Positions 4,799-30,311 of a stretch of 30,311 nucleotides of DNA are shown piece by piece (position 1 is the first letter of the stretch; each line of letters begins with the position of its first letter). The notes under the pieces were generated by a model. That model was given only the letters and a program-made list of their open reading frames with translations. It was not told the origin of the DNA and did not search any database. The position numbers and the translations under genes are program-made. The stretch covers positions 1 to 30,311 of IMG/VR virus record IMGVR_UViG_2778261541_000010; one strand, given 5' to 3'. The DNA comes from a virus. Lineage: Duplodnaviria > Heunggongvirae > Uroviricota > Caudoviricetes.

Positions 4799-5833
4799 TC
4801 AATATTTGATATACGCGTCCTGCACTTTGCCGCCAGCGATAGCCAACATTGCTTTCTGCGCGAATTCTTCGGGAATGCCTTGGGCTATCAGATCTGCGAT
4901 TACTCTGCGGTTAACGGTACGGCGATGCTCTTTATCCGCAGCTCGGCGCGCTTCTTCGTCGGCGATACGCTTCTGTTCTTCAATGCGGGCTTTTTCTGCC
5001 TCCTCTTGGCGTCGGCGTTCCTCGGCAACGGCTTCTTCTTTTTCGCGTCGTGCACGCTGCTCTGCTTCAATTCGCTGACGTTCTGCTACTTCAGCACGTG
5101 CTTTCTCTTCCGCCGCTAGGCGTGCCGCAGCATCAATTTCAGCTTTCGCTTTTTGTTCAGCTTCGAGCCTGGCCTGTTCAGCAGCTTCCCGGCGGATATT
5201 CTCTTCTCGCTCAATGCGCGCTTTTTCCTCCGCTTCTTTGCGAAGTCTCTCCAGCTCAGCGGCTTCATGCTCGCGTTTTTGAGCTACTGCGAGTGATTCT
5301 TCCAGTTTCTGGATGGTTGAATCCTTGGCTACTCCAGCTTCTGCTGCGTACTCCTGCCAACTCTCATCAAGTGCTACTGATTTAGCCTCTTGAATTCGTT
5401 CCTGAATATCAGTTGATGGCAAGTAGTTTCCGGAGAGATCGATCACGTCAGCCAGTGCTCGCAAATTTGTCAGGCGTTGTTGCAGTGCTTCAGTGCGTAA
5501 TTTCTCAGCATTTTCCCACTCGGTGAGTGGGCGGCGTACTTCATCACGAAGCCGATCGCATTCGGTTACGAAGCGTCGTAACTCTGCTTCAACTACTTTC
5601 GGCTGTTCTTTCAGGCGTTTCAGATAATCACGTCCTGGTTTTTCTACCGCTGTTTTACTTCTTGAAACCTTCGCAGCCAGAGATGCAATGCGCTTTCTGC
5701 CTTTGTCTGTGCTAATGTCAGGCACTTCATTAACACCTTCACGGATCTGCTCGAGAAACTTTTCCAGTCCTTTTTCAACGTAAATTCTTGGTGCCATATC
5801 TGGTGTGATTTCGATGATTGATAATTCACTCAT
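4799..5833 (-). CDS. Coiled-coil, E/A/R/K-rich phage protein (TolA-like low complexity)
   Basis: 344-aa ORF with a long repetitive charged helical region (EAEQKAKAEIDAAARLAAEEKARAE...); first large gene of the leftward operon. Confidence 0.6.
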   Translation of the reverse strand: MSELSIIEITPDMAPRIYVEKGLEKFLEQIREGVNEVPDISTDKGRKRIASLAAKVSRSKTAVEKPGRDYLKRLKEQPKVVEAELRRFVTECDRLRDEVRRPLTEWENAEKLRTEALQQRLTNLRALADVIDLSGNYLPSTDIQERIQEAKSVALDESWQEYAAEAGVAKDSTIQKLEESLAVAQKREHEAAELERLRKEAEEKARIEREENIRREAAEQARLEAEQKAKAEIDAAARLAAEEKARAEVAERQRIEAEQRARREKEEAVAEERRRQEEAEKARIEEQKRIADEEARRAADKEHRRTVNRRVIADLIAQGIPEEFAQKAMLAIAGGKVQDAYIKY

Positions 5834-6010: not shown

Positions 6011-6025
6011 TTACCGTTGAGGTAA
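6011..6025. promoter_or_regulatory. Operator: perfect 15-bp palindrome TTACCGTTGAGGTAA overlapping the -10 of the leftward early promoter
   Basis: TTACC-N5-GGTAA; 62 bp centre-to-centre from the 6073 site. Confidence 0.7.
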
Positions 6026-6053
6026 TAATTATGCGTATCTGGTTTGATGTCAA
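6025..6053 (-). promoter_or_regulatory. Leftward early promoter (PL-like)
   Basis: Minus-strand TTGACA (6053-6048) followed 14-17 nt later by CATAAT/AATTAT; flanked by two operator palindromes. Confidence 0.5.
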
Positions 6054-6072
6054 TAGGTATGAGTTAAAAAAA

Positions 6073-6087
6073 TTACCCATCAGGTAA
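6073..6087. promoter_or_regulatory. Operator: TTACCCATCAGGTAA
   Basis: Perfect TTACC-N5-GGTAA palindrome between the repressor terminator and the leftward promoter. Confidence 0.7.
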
Positions 6088-6097
6088 TCGCACAGGC

Positions 6098-6123
6098 AAT
6101 AAAAAAGCCGCCATGAGGCGGCT
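6098..6123 (-). terminator. Intrinsic terminator of the repressor gene
   Basis: Minus-strand hairpin AGCCGCC-TCAT-GGCGGCT followed by TTTTTATT; 22 nt downstream of the repressor stop. Confidence 0.7.
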
Positions 6124-6144
6124 TACTTACTGAAAAATATGATT

Positions 6145-6729
6145 TTATTGTTTGTTTTTTTCGTTCTGGCTGATGACAAATTCAATGTAACTTTCGATCT
6201 TTGCCTTCTCTGTTTCAGGTAACAATGCGTAGCGCGAGCGGTCATAGTTGATGGTCGCAGGGTCGTGCGGGTGAATCAGTAATTCATAGCCGTGACGCCC
6301 GAATGCGGATGCAACATTCTCCAGGGTGGAAATGGAAACACTGACCTCATTGTTTAACAGGCGGCTGATTGTCACCTGGGCGACGCCGGATGCGCGGTGA
6401 AGTTTTCCCTGCGTTGAAAGGTCGCGGCTTTCGCTCATCCAGCGTTCTAGGTTGTGAGCCGCCAGCTGACCAATGTCGCTTGGGCCGACAGGCTGAAAAC
6501 CTTCCTGAGAAAGCGAGCGATCGATATCAAGCCAGTTACGGGGTTTATTGGCGGCAGCTTCAATTTTTCGCGCAACCTGGTCGCCGATAACCTTCTTGCC
6601 AAGAGCCCAGCGGTTTACCAGATTTGCCTGAGTTCCAAGTTTTTCTGCCATCCGCGTCTGAACACCATTGAATTCACGGTCGATCAAGTCGTTGAGATTT
6701 TGCCTGCGGACGTCCTGGATACTTTTCAT
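6145..6729 (-). CDS. Phage repressor with two XRE-type HTH domains in tandem (CI-like function)
   Basis: Two HTH segments (MAEKLGTQANLVNRWALGKK and ASGVAQVTISRLLNNEVSVS); divergent from a cro-like gene across an operator-rich intergenic region; own terminator downstream. Confidence 0.8.
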   Translation of the reverse strand: MKSIQDVRRQNLNDLIDREFNGVQTRMAEKLGTQANLVNRWALGKKVIGDQVARKIEAAANKPRNWLDIDRSLSQEGFQPVGPSDIGQLAAHNLERWMSESRDLSTQGKLHRASGVAQVTISRLLNNEVSVSISTLENVASAFGRHGYELLIHPHDPATINYDRSRYALLPETEKAKIESYIEFVISQNEKNKQ

Positions 6730-6784: not shown

Positions 6785-6799
6785 TTACCCAATAGGTAA
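6785..6799. promoter_or_regulatory. Operator O1 of the immunity region: TTACCCAATAGGTAA
   Basis: Perfect palindrome between divergent repressor and cro genes. Confidence 0.7.
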
Positions 6800-6801
6800 A
6801 T

Positions 6802-6816
6802 GCACCCCATAGGTAA
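6802..6816. promoter_or_regulatory. Degenerate operator O2: GCACCCCATAGGTAA
   Basis: Right half-site perfect, left half 3/5; 17 bp from O1. Confidence 0.45.
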
Positions 6817-6829
6817 CTATCCTTGATTT

Positions 6830-6858
6830 TTGTTACCTTATGGGTGAATATTTATTAT
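6830..6858 (+). promoter_or_regulatory. Rightward early promoter driving cro (PR-like)
   Basis: TTGTTA-17 bp-TATTAT, about 25 nt upstream of the cro ATG. Confidence 0.5.
6833..6847. promoter_or_regulatory. Operator O3: TTACCTTATGGGTGA (one mismatch), overlapping the cro promoter
   Basis: Overlaps -35 TTGTTA (6830-6835) of a promoter with -10 TATTAT (6853-6858), 17-bp spacer. Confidence 0.55.
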
Positions 6859-6883: not shown

Positions 6884-7114
6884 ATGAGCGATAACGGACA
6901 TTTCGATTTCAAAAAGCACTGGCTTGCACTTACTCCGGATGAGCGTGAAGCCTTCGCACAGGAAGCCGGAACGACGAGTCACTATATCCAGACTCACTTA
7001 ACAGGTAAGCGCAAAATGCCAGGTAAGGTATTGATGAATGGGCTTTTTAAAGCCTGTAAAACAAGACAATGGCTGCGCTCAAAAGCAGAACTGGCATACT
7101 TCTTCTACTCATGA
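6884..7114 (+). CDS. Cro-like small HTH regulator
   Basis: 76-aa ORF divergent from the repressor; HTH-like LTPDEREAFAQEAGTTSHYIQTHLTGKR; promoter and operators immediately upstream; terminator downstream. Confidence 0.6.
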   Translation: MSDNGHFDFKKHWLALTPDEREAFAQEAGTTSHYIQTHLTGKRKMPGKVLMNGLFKACKTRQWLRSKAELAYFFYS

Positions 7115-7169: not shown

Positions 7170-7184
7170 GCACCTCAAAGGTAA
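7170..7184. promoter_or_regulatory. Degenerate operator-like site GCACCTCAAAGGTAA
   Basis: Same GCACC-N5-GGTAA variant as the 6802 site; lies between the cro terminator and the zinc-ribbon gene. Confidence 0.35.
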
Positions 7185-9097: not shown

Positions 9098-9112
9098 TTA
9101 CCTGTTGGGTAA
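9098..9112. promoter_or_regulatory. Operator: TTACCTGTTGGGTAA
   Basis: Perfect palindrome upstream of the -35 of the 9.1-kb promoter. Confidence 0.7.
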
Positions 9113-9131
9113 CAAAATGTTCTAATCTCTA

Positions 9132-9160
9132 TTGATTCCATGTCTTATGTGGTTTTTAAT
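9132..9160 (+). promoter_or_regulatory. Promoter for the accessory (nin-like) operon
   Basis: TTGATT (9132-9137)-17 bp-TTTAAT (9155-9160); flanked by operators at 9098 and 9160. Confidence 0.5.
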
Positions 9161-9174
9161 TACCTAAGGGGTAA
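9160..9174. promoter_or_regulatory. Operator: TTACCTAAGGGGTAA overlapping the -10/+1 region and the ribosome-binding site of the DUF1064 gene
   Basis: Perfect palindrome ending 4 nt before the ATG at 9178; 62 bp from the 9098 site. Confidence 0.7.
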
Positions 9175-9177
9175 ATC

Positions 9178-9522
9178 ATGAGAAAACAGATACAGGCTCT
9201 TGGTCGACTCAAAACAGGCCAAATGAACAAAACAGAATCTGCGTATTGCCAGCACCTTGAGCTGCGTAAACGTGCAGGAGAAATCGTCTGGTATCGATTT
9301 GAGGGTATCAAGCTGCGGTTAGCTGACAACACGTTCTATACGCCCGATTTTGCTGTGATGCTCGCCACCGGCGAGATGGAACTGCACGAAGTGAAAGGTT
9401 TCTGGACCGACGACGCCAGGGTGAAAACCAAAGTCGCCGCAGATCAGTATCCGTTCCGAATCATCGGGGTAACGGTTAAACCAAAGAAAGCAGGTGGTGG
9501 CTGGAACATCGAAGAGTTCTGA
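9178..9522 (+). CDS. DUF1064-like phage protein with a PD-(D/E)XK-like motif
   Basis: TPDFAV...ELHEVKG motif; first gene after an operator-flanked promoter. Confidence 0.5.
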   Translation: MRKQIQALGRLKTGQMNKTESAYCQHLELRKRAGEIVWYRFEGIKLRLADNTFYTPDFAVMLATGEMELHEVKGFWTDDARVKTKVAADQYPFRIIGVTVKPKKAGGGWNIEEF

Positions 9523-12095: not shown

Positions 12096-12110
12096 TTACC
12101 ACAACGGTAA
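12096..12110. promoter_or_regulatory. Operator: TTACCACAACGGTAA, immediately upstream of the small terminase start
   Basis: Perfect palindrome; a degenerate overlapping repeat follows at 12114-12128 (TTACCACGGTGGTTA). Confidence 0.6.
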
Positions 12111-12127
12111 CTATTACCACGGTGGTT

Positions 12128-12724
12128 ATGATGCCTGCTGAACCTAAAACCTATAAACGCAAATCAACGCAATTTAAGCCACTAACAGCAATGCAGGAGG
12201 CTTATTGCCAGTCATACATCAAAACGCCTGAAAACCAGACTCAGGCAGCGATTAACGCAGGATTCTCCCCAAATACAGCGGCAGTTAAAGCCAGTGTCAT
12301 GATGCGCGATGAACGCATTCAAAAACGGATTGCCGAGCTGATGGAGGAGCGCAACAAACGAATGCGCGTCAGTGCTGATTACGTTCTCATGCGTCTGGTG
12401 GAGATCGACCAGATGGACGTGATCGACATCCTCAACGACGATGGGAGCCTTAAGCCAATCCGCGAGTGGCCGAAAATTTGGCGCACTACGCTTAGTGGCT
12501 TTGATCTGTCATCGACCATCATGAACATGAACGAGGATTCGATAGAGACAATCCTCAAAAAAATTAAATGGCCTGATAAGGTGAAGAACCTCGAACTGAT
12601 TGGTAAGCACGTCGACGTCAACGCATTCAAAGAACGCCTGGATGTTAATGTGAATGTGACAATTGCTGATCGCATAGCGGCAGCCAGGAAGAGACTGAAA
12701 GAACGTCAGGATGGCAATCAGTGA
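12128..12724 (+). CDS. Terminase small subunit
   Basis: TAMQEAYCQSYIKTPENQTQAAINAGFSP matches the HTH of phage small terminases; start trimmed to ATG 12128 (track start 12050 runs through a terminator and repeats). Confidence 0.7.
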   Translation: MMPAEPKTYKRKSTQFKPLTAMQEAYCQSYIKTPENQTQAAINAGFSPNTAAVKASVMMRDERIQKRIAELMEERNKRMRVSADYVLMRLVEIDQMDVIDILNDDGSLKPIREWPKIWRTTLSGFDLSSTIMNMNEDSIETILKKIKWPDKVKNLELIGKHVDVNAFKERLDVNVNVTIADRIAAARKRLKERQDGNQ

Positions 12725-14286: not shown

Positions 14287-14667
14287 TTATTGCTCGCTTA
14301 ACTTCTGCTTCAGCAAGTAACCTTCGAGCATCCAGATTTTGTTTACAGCATTCTGCCGGGCAATCTTCCGACCAATTTCTGCATCAAAATTTTCCGGGCT
14401 TGCACAGGCACTCTCTCCGGTGACGGTGAAGCCATTCTTCAGCACCAGTACGCAGAAAGTGAGCAACTTCAATGGTGATAAATCACGATCGCCTTCTTCT
14501 GGTTTTTCTCTGCCACAATATTCGTTGCTGGAAATGGCACCATTTCGTCCATCATAAGCAGTAAAGTAATGCTCGCTTTTAATCACATCTTCGATGTGCT
14601 GCGGGGTGATTCGCGGTGCCGTTTTGCCTTTCTCAACGATTTCTTTTTCGATTTGCTGGTCGTTCAT
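14287..14667 (-). CDS. Reverse-oriented moron gene, likely DUF1398 (YbcV/YdfO-like) family
   Basis: 126-aa ORF on the opposite strand to all flanking structural genes; AAGGTGAG RBS; intrinsic terminators on both sides; family assignment from memory of YbcV/YdfO-like prophage proteins. Confidence 0.5.
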   Translation of the reverse strand: MNDQQIEKEIVEKGKTAPRITPQHIEDVIKSEHYFTAYDGRNGAISSNEYCGREKPEEGDRDLSPLKLLTFCVLVLKNGFTVTGESACASPENFDAEIGRKIARQNAVNKIWMLEGYLLKQKLSEQ

Positions 14668-14678
14668 AATCTCACCTT

Positions 14679-14702
14679 AAAAAAATGCCCGGTTCGCCGG
14701 GC
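14679..14702 (-). terminator. Intrinsic terminator directly upstream of the moron gene RBS (minus strand)
   Basis: Minus-strand GCCCGG-CGAA-CCGGGC followed by ATTTTTTT, then AAGGTGAG and the ATG. Confidence 0.65.
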
Positions 14703-14780
14703 GAACTGGAAGCAATGAGTTATGCCTTCCGTGGCTGTACTGGTTTACAGCATGAAGTCATCGCAATGGCGTCCTGCTGT

Positions 14781-14822
14781 AAAAAGGGCGGTGATAGTCC
14801 TTCAAGGGAAACCATCACCGCC
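14781..14822 (-). terminator. Terminator downstream of tRNA-Arg (minus strand)
   Basis: 9-bp stem GGCGGTGAT/ATCACCGCC with structured loop, followed on the minus strand by CTTTTTAC. Confidence 0.55.
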
Positions 14823-14865
14823 AAGCACCTGGAACTTCTGGCATCACGGTCCTTAGGCGTGATTC

Positions 14866-14942
14866 TGGCGTGGCATGCAGGATTCGAACCTGCGACCAAC
14901 CGCTTAGAAGGCGGTTGCTCTGTCCGACTGAGCTAATGCCAC
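14866..14942 (-). tRNA. tRNA-Arg (anticodon UCU), phage-encoded, with encoded CCA
   Basis: Reverse complement folds as a 77-nt cloverleaf: acceptor GTGGCAT/ATGCCAC, D-arm GCTC-AGTCGGACA-GAGC, anticodon arm ACCGC-CTTCTAA-GCGGT (anticodon TCT), T-arm GCAGG-TTCGAAT-CCTGC, discriminator G, CCA. Confidence 0.9.
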
Positions 14943-15264: not shown

Positions 15265-15279
15265 TTACCTGAAAGGTAA
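15265..15279. promoter_or_regulatory. Operator: TTACCTGAAAGGTAA upstream of the virion-gene operon
   Basis: Perfect palindrome about 90 bp upstream of the first structural gene. Confidence 0.65.
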
Positions 15280-15369
15280 TAATTCGTGCGTTAAATGTCA
15301 ACTATCTACGATAAATAAATCATATATGGTTAAATTGGTGATAATTTAATTGCGTACGGAGTCATTGAT

Positions 15370-19761: not shown

Positions 19762-20097
19762 ATGTCAGGTGAGAAACCAAGATACCGCGTTCTGCGCCTC
19801 TCTCATATCCATAACACACTGTGGCCGGAGGGGGCAGAAATCGAATACGAAGGTGAGCCTGGTAGCGCACTGGAACCTGTTAACGATGCAGCCAGACAGG
19901 CAAAAGCAAAGGTAGCAGGAAAGGTGACTATGGCAGCAACCAGCACCAAAATCATCAACGATGTGTCAGATGATGGTGAACTGGATAAGCTCCGTGAAGA
20001 GTACGAATTGCTCTTTAACGAGAAGCCACACCATAACGCCAAAGCCGAAACGCTCCGCGAGAAGATCGCAGATAAGCGTAAAGAACTGGGCGTGTAA
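19762..20097 (+). CDS. Hypothetical virion-module protein (111 aa)
   Basis: ATG 19762 preceded by AAGGTGA (track start 19753 is a GTG inside the RBS); followed by a terminator-like hairpin. Confidence 0.45.
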   Translation: MSGEKPRYRVLRLSHIHNTLWPEGAEIEYEGEPGSALEPVNDAARQAKAKVAGKVTMAATSTKIINDVSDDGELDKLREEYELLFNEKPHHNAKAETLREKIADKRKELGV

Positions 20098-20471: not shown

Positions 20472-21076
20472 TGGCCTCTGTAGTAGAGATCTGTAATCGT
20501 GCGCTGTCCAATATTGGCAACAGCCGCAGCATTAACAGCCTGACGGAAGCCAGCAAGGAAGCAGGGGAATGTTCGCTGCACTTTGAGGCCTGCCGTGATG
20601 CTGTGCTTTCTGATTTTGACTGGAACTTTGCTACCAAACGCGTGGCGCTTGCAGATACGAACAATCCACCGCCTGACTGGGAATATGCGTACCAGTACCC
20701 GTCCGATTGTCTGCGCATTACTGAAATTATGCTTCCTGGTGTACGCAATCCAACAGCAGCAATGCGCGTCCAGTACGAAGTGGGTGCAGACACCAATGGA
20801 ACAGGAAAGTTGATCTACACAGGCCAGCCGCAGGCATGGCTCAAGTATGTCTCTCGCGTTTCAGATGTAAACATGTTTGATGCCATTTTTATGGAGGCGC
20901 TGGCCTGGCGTCTTGCGGCAGCCATTAACATGGCGCTGACTGGGAATGCAGACCTCGGTACGTTTGCCCTCAATATGTACAATCGCGTGATTCTTAGTGC
21001 TGGCTCGCATAGCCAGAATGAATCACAGGAACCACAGCCACCGGTTGATGAGTTTACCATTGCGAGGTTGTCCTGA
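20471..21076 (+). CDS. Tail tubular protein A (T7 gp11-like)
   Basis: About 200 aa directly upstream of a gp12-like gene; N-terminal pattern N.AL..IG...L.E resembles gp11; GGGGTGAG RBS. Confidence 0.55.
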   Translation: MASVVEICNRALSNIGNSRSINSLTEASKEAGECSLHFEACRDAVLSDFDWNFATKRVALADTNNPPPDWEYAYQYPSDCLRITEIMLPGVRNPTAAMRVQYEVGADTNGTGKLIYTGQPQAWLKYVSRVSDVNMFDAIFMEALAWRLAAAINMALTGNADLGTFALNMYNRVILSAGSHSQNESQEPQPPVDEFTIARLS

Positions 21077-30200: not shown

Positions 30201-30311
30201 AATGGTGATGCCGGTGATCGTATTGTGCATAATGTCCGAACCCTGATACCAGGCAATAACCTGTTCTGGATTGCGCCACTAATAAACCAGGTGGATCCGG
30301 TGATGCGGTGA
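27297..30311 (+). CDS. Large internal virion/ejection protein (gp15/gp16-like); stop codon is the last triplet of the window
   Basis: 1004-aa ORF following the SLT protein; Ala/Gly-rich hydrophobic segment near residue 130-200; position matches T7 internal core proteins. Confidence 0.6.
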   Translation: MPVYAQAEDLNNGLIPSGNVLPEQTGFDVALPEGANPEPLPPEPSVWGAAMRQNNILSGFFRPARQFEPVEGYNPYADKNELHGYEYWGAKFADSRSPEETAWIKQQIDDENEDRRLLSDAGVVGTLASIAAGMDPVTVASMFIPGAQGGALARIGSQIAIGAAGTALSEVVLNNQQITRSWGESAAHVAAGAMMSGVFASAGVALSPSVRAAATREVADALDNMSITSATDRAAASLSDGGSVGAMKIDTAALDDLTPVSGGWVGKAAWKAGSYLTPLTRLMESPSKTVRKTALELAENNFTLKGNERGIETPVAVETRTRGWQREEAAVVVGNKQAYAKYKADGGDMSFDSFRQQVGNAMRSGDVHANPVVQETAQAMRTVLNRVKVEMQKLGLLPPDEELKALGQASYFPRIYKVGKIISERDKFRRILVDWWSRGNKTLDPEDAEIAADIVINKITGAKVPQDFVSVFSVKAAGSTKERTLNVPDSLIRDYLESDVNYVLQRHIREAAAEIELTRTFGKRTMTERLQLIEDEYDSLLREVPEKIKAKYDESVANLKARYESNGEVVPQGKLDSLMRKYEKELRKEQSRLSKSRANDLRDITALRDRLVGTYGMPDDPSSFFVRAGAFLRDVNFTTKLGGMTVSAIPDLARGVMVNGFRNTMKGYASQISQSPAFKASKEEMLKMGIGLEAVLHSRSRAIGDLVDSSSRTTAVEAGMERITDAFGKLTLMDRFNDINKSMNGMLTSDGILSGAFSARRMAKLGINDNMAARIRSEFEKHGEVIDGWHIGNFDKWDDQYVAGVFQSAVLKDVNNTIITPGIGDTPLWASTPMGRTIFQFKSFTTASYNRALLGGLQEGTAQFYYGTVFQIALGSLVYALKEASKGKNVDWSPEKLVLEGIDRSGILGPLMEYNNMAEKATGGAVGLGALFGTGTQSRYASRGFVGSLFGPSFGLADSIIDVTAGVLNGDAGDRIVHNVRTLIPGNNLFWIAPLINQVDPVMR

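Follow-up and report, generated by a model that had tools for sequence, protein, structure and literature searches.

Two helix-turn-helix folds in a phiV10/epsilon15-like prophage repressor: a very probable antirepressor-controlled orthologue of SPC32H Rep

Results

The rep locus and its relatives

The window, by which we mean the whole 30,311-nucleotide stretch that was analysed, is a phiV10/epsilon15-like podophage genome of the genus Uetakevirus. The rep gene occupies positions 6145..6729 on the minus strand (stop codon included) and encodes a 194-aa lysogeny repressor of the SPC32H Rep/phiV10 gp40 family. The product starts at an ATG with the residues MKSIQDV, and the MKSI N-terminus is invariant in all homologues. 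An intrinsic terminator lies after rep on the same strand (6105..6124; 8-bp stem with 6 GC pairs, followed by a T-run), and its counterpart is annotated in phiV10. On the plus strand, a divergent cro-like gene (6884..7114) encodes 76 aa and matches phrog_35 'transcriptional repressor' with an E value of 5.6e-13. SPC32H_042 and phiV10p41 are its syntenic counterparts.

The immunity region shares 97-99% identity with those of phiV10, phiv142-3, the O157 typing phages 9 and 10, ZX5 and others. The repressor shares 193 of its 194 residues with phiV10 gp40 (phiV10p40, YP_512295) and equally with ORF21 of vB_EcoP_ZX5, and the lone difference in both is S187N. The public annotation of phiV10 gp40 reads 'two helix-turn-helix motifs (PF01381); similar to putative repressor epsilon15p38'. 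Overexpression of ZX5 ORF21 is reported to block the lytic cycle: no free phage was left, and transcription of holin and endolysin fell by over 99.9% (PMC9782041). The 'anti-repressor' tested in the ZX5 paper is a Bro-N protein, not the small Ant of the SPC32H type. Neither the protein nor its pair of HTH motifs is new, and its function as a repressor and the antirepressor induction of its family are likewise on public record.

Domain architecture of the repressor

The earlier note had placed two HTH segments at residues 27-46 and 113-132. Profile searches and structure prediction bear this out, with HTH units close by. A Pfam search with the whole protein returned HTH_3 over two stretches (E 1.2e-9), of which residues 106-147 were the best, and a Cro/YdaS-like HTH at residues 21-61. 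When the domains were scanned separately, the N-terminal HTH stayed sub-threshold (YdaS_toxin, 4e-4; HTH_3, 0.012), whereas the middle HTH reached 27 bits against an HTH_3 gathering score of 23 (E 4.6e-6). The middle domain also matches the LacI and HTH_26 profiles. On DNA-binding HTH profiles, therefore, the middle domain outscores the N-terminal one. Residues 146-194 matched no Pfam family even at E <= 10. The note had also seen no LexA/CI-type peptidase domain, and the Pfam profile search agreed with it, returning no Peptidase_S24 at E <= 1.

An AlphaFold2 model was built from 38 homologues (pLDDT 77.9, pTM 0.40). It contains two five-helix bundles, at residues ~4-59 and ~85-151, with the helix-turn-helix pairs 24-31/35-43 and 107-114/118-125. 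Residues 61-84 form a disordered linker devoid of secondary structure, with pLDDT below 50 at positions 75-81, and the C-terminal tail is predicted as an extended segment followed by a long helix (172-193).

We divided the protein, encoded throughout on the minus strand, into four parts. The N-terminal Cro/CI-type HTH domain (residues 1-70, 6520..6729) carries the HTH helices 24-31 and 35-43 and is the inferred DNA-reading head. A flexible interdomain linker (residues 71-88, 6466..6519) was delimited from the AlphaFold2 model and from conservation; it is the least conserved segment, with 4 of 18 residues identical to SPC32H Rep. The second HTH_3-fold domain (residues 89-153, 6271..6465) is the counterpart of the middle dimerisation domain (MDD) of SPC32H Rep, and the C-terminal tail (residues 154-194, 6148..6270) is the counterpart of its tetramerisation/Ant-binding domain (CAD/TetDloop).

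Relationship to SPC32H Rep

A phmmer search of solved structures matched residues 1-190 to residues 2-197 of 5d50_A, 'Repressor', with an E value of 4.1e-42. The entry 5d4z, which comprises Rep 92-198, the C-terminal two thirds, was also matched (E 4.2e-20), with the middle domain aligned; the C-terminal tail aligns to both entries. Foldseek with the AlphaFold2 model ranked the same entries at the top, 5d50 (E 6e-11) and then 5d4z (TM 0.73), under the titles 'Rep-Ant complex from Salmonella-temperate phage' and 'Repressor from Salmonella-temperate phage'. By tblastn, SPC32H Rep and the repressor of the window are 41.8% identical over 98% of the query, and the middle domains are 34% identical. 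The two proteins share one Pfam pattern, a middle HTH_3 and a YdaS/Cro-like N-terminal domain, and the three-part architecture of an N-terminal HTH, a middle HTH fold and a strand-plus-helix tail is present in the window repressor.

SPC32H Rep has been studied in structure and in function (Kim & Ryu 2013 J Virol; Kim et al. 2016 PNAS, as described in PMC9638917 and PMC9986798), with PDB entries 5D50 for the Rep-Ant complex and 5D4Z for Rep 92-198. The latter fragment crystallised as a tetramer. According to PMC9986798, the N-terminus is the DNA-binding domain, the middle part is the dimerisation domain (MDD), and the C-terminal domain (CAD/TetDloop) serves both tetramer formation and binding of the antirepressor Ant. 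PMC9638917 describes dimers and tetramers that both exist, of which the tetramer binds DNA and the dimer binds it weakly; the pair of N-terminal domains on one palindrome is drawn from different dimers. The same paper states that tetrameric Ant joins two Rep dimers and that the Rep tetramer is broken.

Operators and promoters

The perfect palindrome TTACC-N5-GGTAA was found seven times in the window and in none of 50 shuffles. When up to one mismatch was allowed, the operator scan gave 8 matches against 0.26 expected. In the strong operators both arms are the same 5-bp word in exact mirror image, and the flanks are roughly symmetric, (A/T)TTACC...GGTAA(T/A). The TTACC/GGTAA arms are identical in the window phage, SPC32H, Enterobacter phage Tyrion and Klebsiella phage BUCT711. 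Operator clusters are given below without strand.

An OR-type cluster of three sites (6785..6847) lies between rep and the cro-like gene. The operator scan placed these sites at 6785-6799 (TTACCCAATAGGTAA), 6802-6816 (GCACCCCATAGGTAA) and 6833-6847 (TTACCTTATGGGTGA), and the three-site layout is also found in SPC32H, Tyrion and BUCT711. The site at 6833 overlaps the -35 element and the spacer of a PR-like sigma-70 promoter for the cro-like gene (TTGTTA-17-TATTAT, 6830..6858, plus strand), a candidate identified by consensus scan only. On the other side of rep, an OL-type pair 62 bp apart (6011..6087) consists of TTACCGTTGAGGTAA (6011-6025) and TTACCCATCAGGTAA (6073-6087). It brackets a PL-like promoter, likewise a consensus-scan candidate (TTGACA-17-AATTAT, 6053 to 6025, minus strand). 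SPC32H, phiV10 and Tyrion keep the 62-bp OL spacing; BUCT711 has 63 bp.

There are further sites in the window. A second 62-bp pair (9098..9174; sites 9098-9112 and 9160-9174) is found upstream of a DUF1064/resolvase-like gene (9178-9522) and is syntenic with SPC32H 35972/36034 and phiV10 35070/35132. A pair 18 bp apart (12096..12128) sits at the start of the small-terminase gene, with a perfect site at 12096-12110 and a site with one mismatch at 12114-12128; its syntenic counterparts are phiV10 87/105 and SPC32H 12. The portal/head operon has a lone perfect site upstream of it (15265..15279), which corresponds in position to phiV10 3252 and SPC32H 3175. The operator scan also returned a weaker match at 7170.

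The N-terminal HTH as the DNA-reading head

Given two HTH folds in one chain and operators with two half-sites, the earlier note had proposed that a single chain could cover the 15-bp palindrome as a pseudo-dimer, which would put the N-terminal HTH on one half-site and the middle HTH on the other. Two HTH-fold domains are indeed present within one chain, and the modelled linker of ~25 residues could in principle span one operator. However, when the N-terminal and middle domains were compared by blastp to look for an internal duplication, nothing significant emerged (E 0.15), and the recognition helices are unlike (ANLVNRW vs QVTISRLL), yet the operator arms are mirror images. Two unrelated heads that both specify one 5-bp word would be an unlikely design. 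Conservation points the same way. Among 41 family members, the N-terminal HTH has eight invariant positions (Q24, R26, E29, N36, R40, W41, K46 and G49), whereas the middle HTH has one (R123). Over the helix 2-3 segment, the N-terminal HTH shares 14 of 26 residues with SPC32H Rep; the middle HTH shares merely 8 of 26, while both arms of the operator are unchanged. The invariant arms would pair with an invariant N-terminal head, and the two sets of conserved features agree in this respect. SPC32H Rep itself binds as a tetramer, with pairs of N-terminal domains on each palindrome, as reported in PMC9638917 and PMC9986798.

The N-terminal domain is also related to known DNA-binding domains. Searching phage genomes by tblastn yielded CI relatives, and residues 4-69 are 36% identical to the N-terminal domain of H-19B CI (pairwise E 8e-9) and 39% identical to that of the CI of Pseudomonas phage PseuP_224 (pairwise E 1e-12). 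With only the N-terminal domain as query, a word-indexed homologue search gave nothing beyond fragments of the same protein. Since its N-terminal domain is homologous to those of S24-bearing CI repressors, Rep resembles a CI-type DNA-binding domain that carries an HTH-fold dimeriser and a tetramerisation tail in place of the S24 module.

The opposite assignment, in which the middle HTH_3 domain binds the operator and the N-terminal domain is regulatory or docks Ant, was weighed as well. The middle domain scores above the HTH_3 gathering score and the N-terminal domain below threshold; residues 106-192 have a weak RstR-like match (E 6.7e-4), and RstR is a full HTH-plus-oligomerisation repressor. 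Furthermore, the ZX5 authors name the C-terminal HTH as DNA-binding, from a TreR/LacI-like match (PMC9782041). Against these points, the N-terminal domain is homologous to bona fide CI DNA-binding domains and keeps the invariant polar or basic residues Q24, R26, N36, R40 and K46, whereas the middle HTH retains R123 alone. Moreover, in the SPC32H homologue residues 92-198 are the dimerisation and tetramerisation domains and the N-terminal part binds DNA, according to PMC9986798. The N-terminal domain carries a net charge of +4 and the middle domain one of 0, which is only weakly supportive of DNA reading by the N-terminus. We regard this reversed assignment as improbable, with about one chance in a score, and the single-chain pseudo-dimer as more improbable still.

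The pseudo-dimer is thus contradicted by the dissimilarity of the domains, the symmetry of the arms, the variability of the middle HTH and the tetrameric state of the homologue. As judged from sequence comparison, our tests agree with the published assignment of DNA binding to the N-terminus. It is not supported that one chain reads both half-sites, because the SPC32H Rep literature, the dissimilar domains, the invariant N-terminal HTH and the CI homology all speak for N-terminal heads from separate chains. The second HTH fold is read here as a protein-protein module because SPC32H Rep, the sole studied member of the family, is reported to use it so. In the phiV10 clade the middle HTH retains a near-canonical signature, Q118-x-T-x-x-R123, above the Pfam threshold, and there is a slight chance that this fold adds auxiliary, low-specificity DNA contacts, for example between paired operators (17-18 or 62 bp). 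If so, the tetramer would present eight HTH units and whole promoters would be clamped at no fewer than five loci of the genome.

Induction by an antirepressor

The earlier note had further suggested induction by something other than RecA-mediated autocleavage, such as an antirepressor. A LexA/lambda-CI-type repressor inactivated through RecA-stimulated self-cleavage could be imagined from the kinship of the N-terminal domain with CI N-terminal domains. However, Peptidase_S24 was not found by Pfam in the whole protein at E <= 1 or in the tail at E <= 10, although the same tool detected it in the CI of H-19B (3.8e-16) and of PseuP_224 (2.6e-22), which served as positive controls. Only ~40 residues are left beyond the two HTH bundles, and the Rep sequence contains neither an Ala-Gly nor a Cys-Gly dipeptide that could serve as the cleavage site. 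Self-cleavage is therefore refuted at the level of sequence and considered the least probable of the alternatives, with a negligible chance of being correct.

Evidence for an antirepressor came from the relatives. The phiV10 protein gp24 is an 85-aa Ant homologue that matches 5d50_E, 'Anti-repressor protein', with an E value of 2.9e-46 and is identical to SPC32H Ant at 72 of 85 positions. Its gene lies immediately downstream of a perfect LexA box, CTGTATAAATACACAG. In SPC32H, ant (SPC32H_020) adjoins the tailspike gene and has the LexA box CTGTATAAACATACAG in front of it, at 19958. An 85-aa Ant homologue directly behind a perfect CTGT-N8-ACAG box was present in each of the three genomes checked, namely phiV10, phiv142-3 and an E. 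coli 13E0780 prophage at guaA; the repressors of the latter two are 193/194 identical to that of the window.

Searching the window by tblastn with the phiV10 Ant-like protein gave nothing below E 1. The window extends from the start codon of the integrase to the end of a 1004-aa virion gene, a few kb short of the ant locus, and it contains no Ant homologue because the syntenic locus lies past its 3' end. By analogy with the near-identical relatives, the genome from which the window derives probably carries ant as well. A search for LexA boxes in the window found a lone CTGT-N8-ACAG, located at 14735 (chance alone would give 0.47), and no Ant-like gene lies beside it. A 126-aa ORF at 14287-14667 was considered as Ant and rejected: it has no match to 5d50, and a weak Acb4-like match is all that it returned. 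Antirepressor induction in place of RecA autocleavage is thus supported through the Ant and the LexA box of the relatives and not through the window itself.

Discussion

Taken together, the window repressor is very probably the repressor of a phiV10/epsilon15-like prophage, an orthologue of SPC32H Rep, and controlled by an antirepressor in the manner set out below. The homology, the fold, the domain layout, the absence of S24, the statistics and synteny of the operators, and the ant gene with its LexA box in relatives come from the present analysis. What is said of the roles of the domains, of the tetramer and of how Ant acts is taken from the literature on a homologue of 42% identity.

In the proposed mechanism, the N-terminal Cro/CI-type HTH domain (~1-70) would read the TTACC half-site, and one TTACC-N5-GGTAA palindrome would be covered by two N-terminal domains from different chains. 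The second HTH_3-fold domain (~89-153), turned to protein-protein contact, would dimerise the chain, and the C-terminal tail (~154-194) would link two dimers into the tetramer, which is the presumed DNA-binding form. A tetramer has four heads and can therefore occupy two palindromes, from which we infer that one tetramer bridges paired operators. A tetramer with two head pairs fits the conserved operator pairs (17-18 or 62 bp), which overlap or bracket the PR-like, the PL-like and further promoters. Upon DNA damage, LexA would be inactivated and the small antirepressor gene ant derepressed, with no self-cleavage of Rep. The ant gene is expected beside the tail-fibre gene, just beyond the window. 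Tetrameric Ant would then bind the C-terminal domains of two Rep dimers, so that the tetramer is broken and the DNA released.

These results carry little weight as a discovery, since the annotation of phiV10, the study of ZX5 and the structures of SPC32H Rep-Ant, with the papers on them, are already public. Their use lies in a correction and in annotation. A phage repressor with a second HTH fold does not necessarily have a second DNA-reading head, and prophages with this Rep are expected to be SOS-inducible via LexA-controlled Ant, not via cleavage of the repressor.

Comparison with known systems

The closest system is that of SPC32H, also a Uetakevirus, in which Rep likewise lies opposite a cro-like gene and TTACC-N5-GGTAA operators occupy syntenic sites. 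The two systems have diverged unequally: Rep is 42% identical, whereas Ant is 85% identical (72/85, with Ant taken from relatives that carry the Rep of the window). The operators of SPC32H have an A/T-rich 5-bp centre, whereas that of the window operators is mixed, and there are three OL sites in SPC32H but two in the window.

The Gifsy-1/-2/-3 repressors and Tum of coliphage 186 follow the same induction logic, in which the repressor stays uncleaved (Lemire et al. 2011, PMC3121763). According to the same paper, these systems have a small antirepressor gene that lies outside the immunity region and is directly controlled by LexA. The Gifsy repressors differ in that, by a section heading of that paper, it is most likely dimers that interact with the antirepressors, and no tetramer bearing an additional HTH-fold domain is involved.

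The lambdoid CI repressors of H-19B, BP-4795 and PseuP_224 have a homologous N-terminal DNA-binding domain (36-39% identity over ~65 residues). Their C-terminal half is the Peptidase_S24 module of autocleavage and dimerisation, whereas the window repressor would have an HTH-fold dimeriser and a tetramerisation/Ant-binding tail in that place. SinR/SinI of Bacillus and RstR/RstC of CTXphi combine an HTH with a C-terminal tetramerisation helix, and a small antagonist protein inactivates them. Residues ~89-194 of the window repressor resemble the SinR/RstR layout, but the similarity is weak: Foldseek matched SinR 1b0n with an E value of 0.12, and the NCBIfam RstR match over residues 106-192 (E 6.7e-4) is far below the cut-off. 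The HTH of SinR and RstR is a DNA-binding one, whereas its equivalent in SPC32H Rep is described as a dimerisation domain (PMC9986798).

Rep-type operators across the genome

Palindromes of the Rep type (TTACC-N5-GGTAA) were also found outside the immunity region, and they occupy syntenic places genome-wide in the window, SPC32H and phiV10. They lie at 7170, 9098-9174, 12096-12128 and 15265-15279 of the window, at 12, 3175, 20013, 24782, 26960 and 35972/36034 in SPC32H, and at 87/105, 3252, 20877, 24692, 26870 and 35070/35132 in phiV10. The syntenic places comprise the replication-distal operon, the start of the small-terminase gene and the portal operon, as well as the region between ant and the tail-fibre gene, the region upstream of the lysis genes and that upstream of int. 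Where operators are paired, the spacing is 62 bp or 17-18 bp and is conserved among the compared genomes. The recurrence of these palindromes at syntenic places suggests that one repressor silences promoters throughout the genome.

Several promoter-like regions contain a recurrent ATG(T)GGTTTTT motif immediately 5' of a GGTAA half-site or a complete operator (window 9140-9160 and 15322-15341; phiV10, about 20915-20935). The motif may be a promoter element common to these regions.

Other genes in the window

The 126-aa protein encoded at 14287-14667 on the minus strand is phiV10p03-like ("Gp49 family", phrog_322). Its residues 69-111 weakly match the sequence of Acb4, an anti-CBASS protein of solved structure (9e4w_A, E 0.007). 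The gene may serve in anti-defence. About 70 bp 5' of it lies the sole match to the LexA-box pattern CTGT-N8-ACAG in the window (CTGTACTGGTTTACAG, 14735-14750), which is kept in phiV10 and the E. coli 13E0780 prophage; with 0.47 expected, a single occurrence is at chance level. A tRNA-Arg(tct) gene (14866-14942, minus strand) is antisense to an 83-aa ORF (14685-14936, plus strand). This ORF, whose counterpart in phiV10 is annotated as a CDS (p04), is probably spurious.

The early-left operon includes a 344-aa ORF (4799-5833, minus strand; phrog_1376, unknown function) whose product is rich in Glu, Ala and Arg and coiled-coil-like. It is a mosaic insertion, since it is shared with phiv142-3 yet missing from phiV10 and prophage 13E0780.

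Antirepressors in related phages

Both edges of the window coincide exactly with gene boundaries, position 1 with the start codon of the integrase gene and position 30311 with the stop codon of the gene for a 1004-aa virion protein; hence, the attachment site, ant, and the tail-fibre and lysis modules fall outside it. Past the 3' limit of the window, prophage 13E0780 has a gene for an Arc-family repressor adjoining a P22-type "antirepressor N-terminal domain" gene, as well as genes for a Bro-N protein and for the toxin YafO; the whole set is flanked by the virion genes on one side and the small ant on the other (L003 34426-36162). Judging from this cluster, the prophage may possess several antirepressor layers. 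In the work on vB_EcoP_ZX5, the anti-repressor assayed was Bro-N rather than the small Ant (PMC9782041).

Ant of phiV10 (L001 20543-20800) is 85% identical to that of SPC32H (L007 19676-19936), whereas the cognate Rep proteins (window 6145-6729 vs. L007 33739-34335) share just 42% identity. Such unequal conservation is compatible with antirepressors that act across heteroimmune repressors, as those of the Gifsy phages do.
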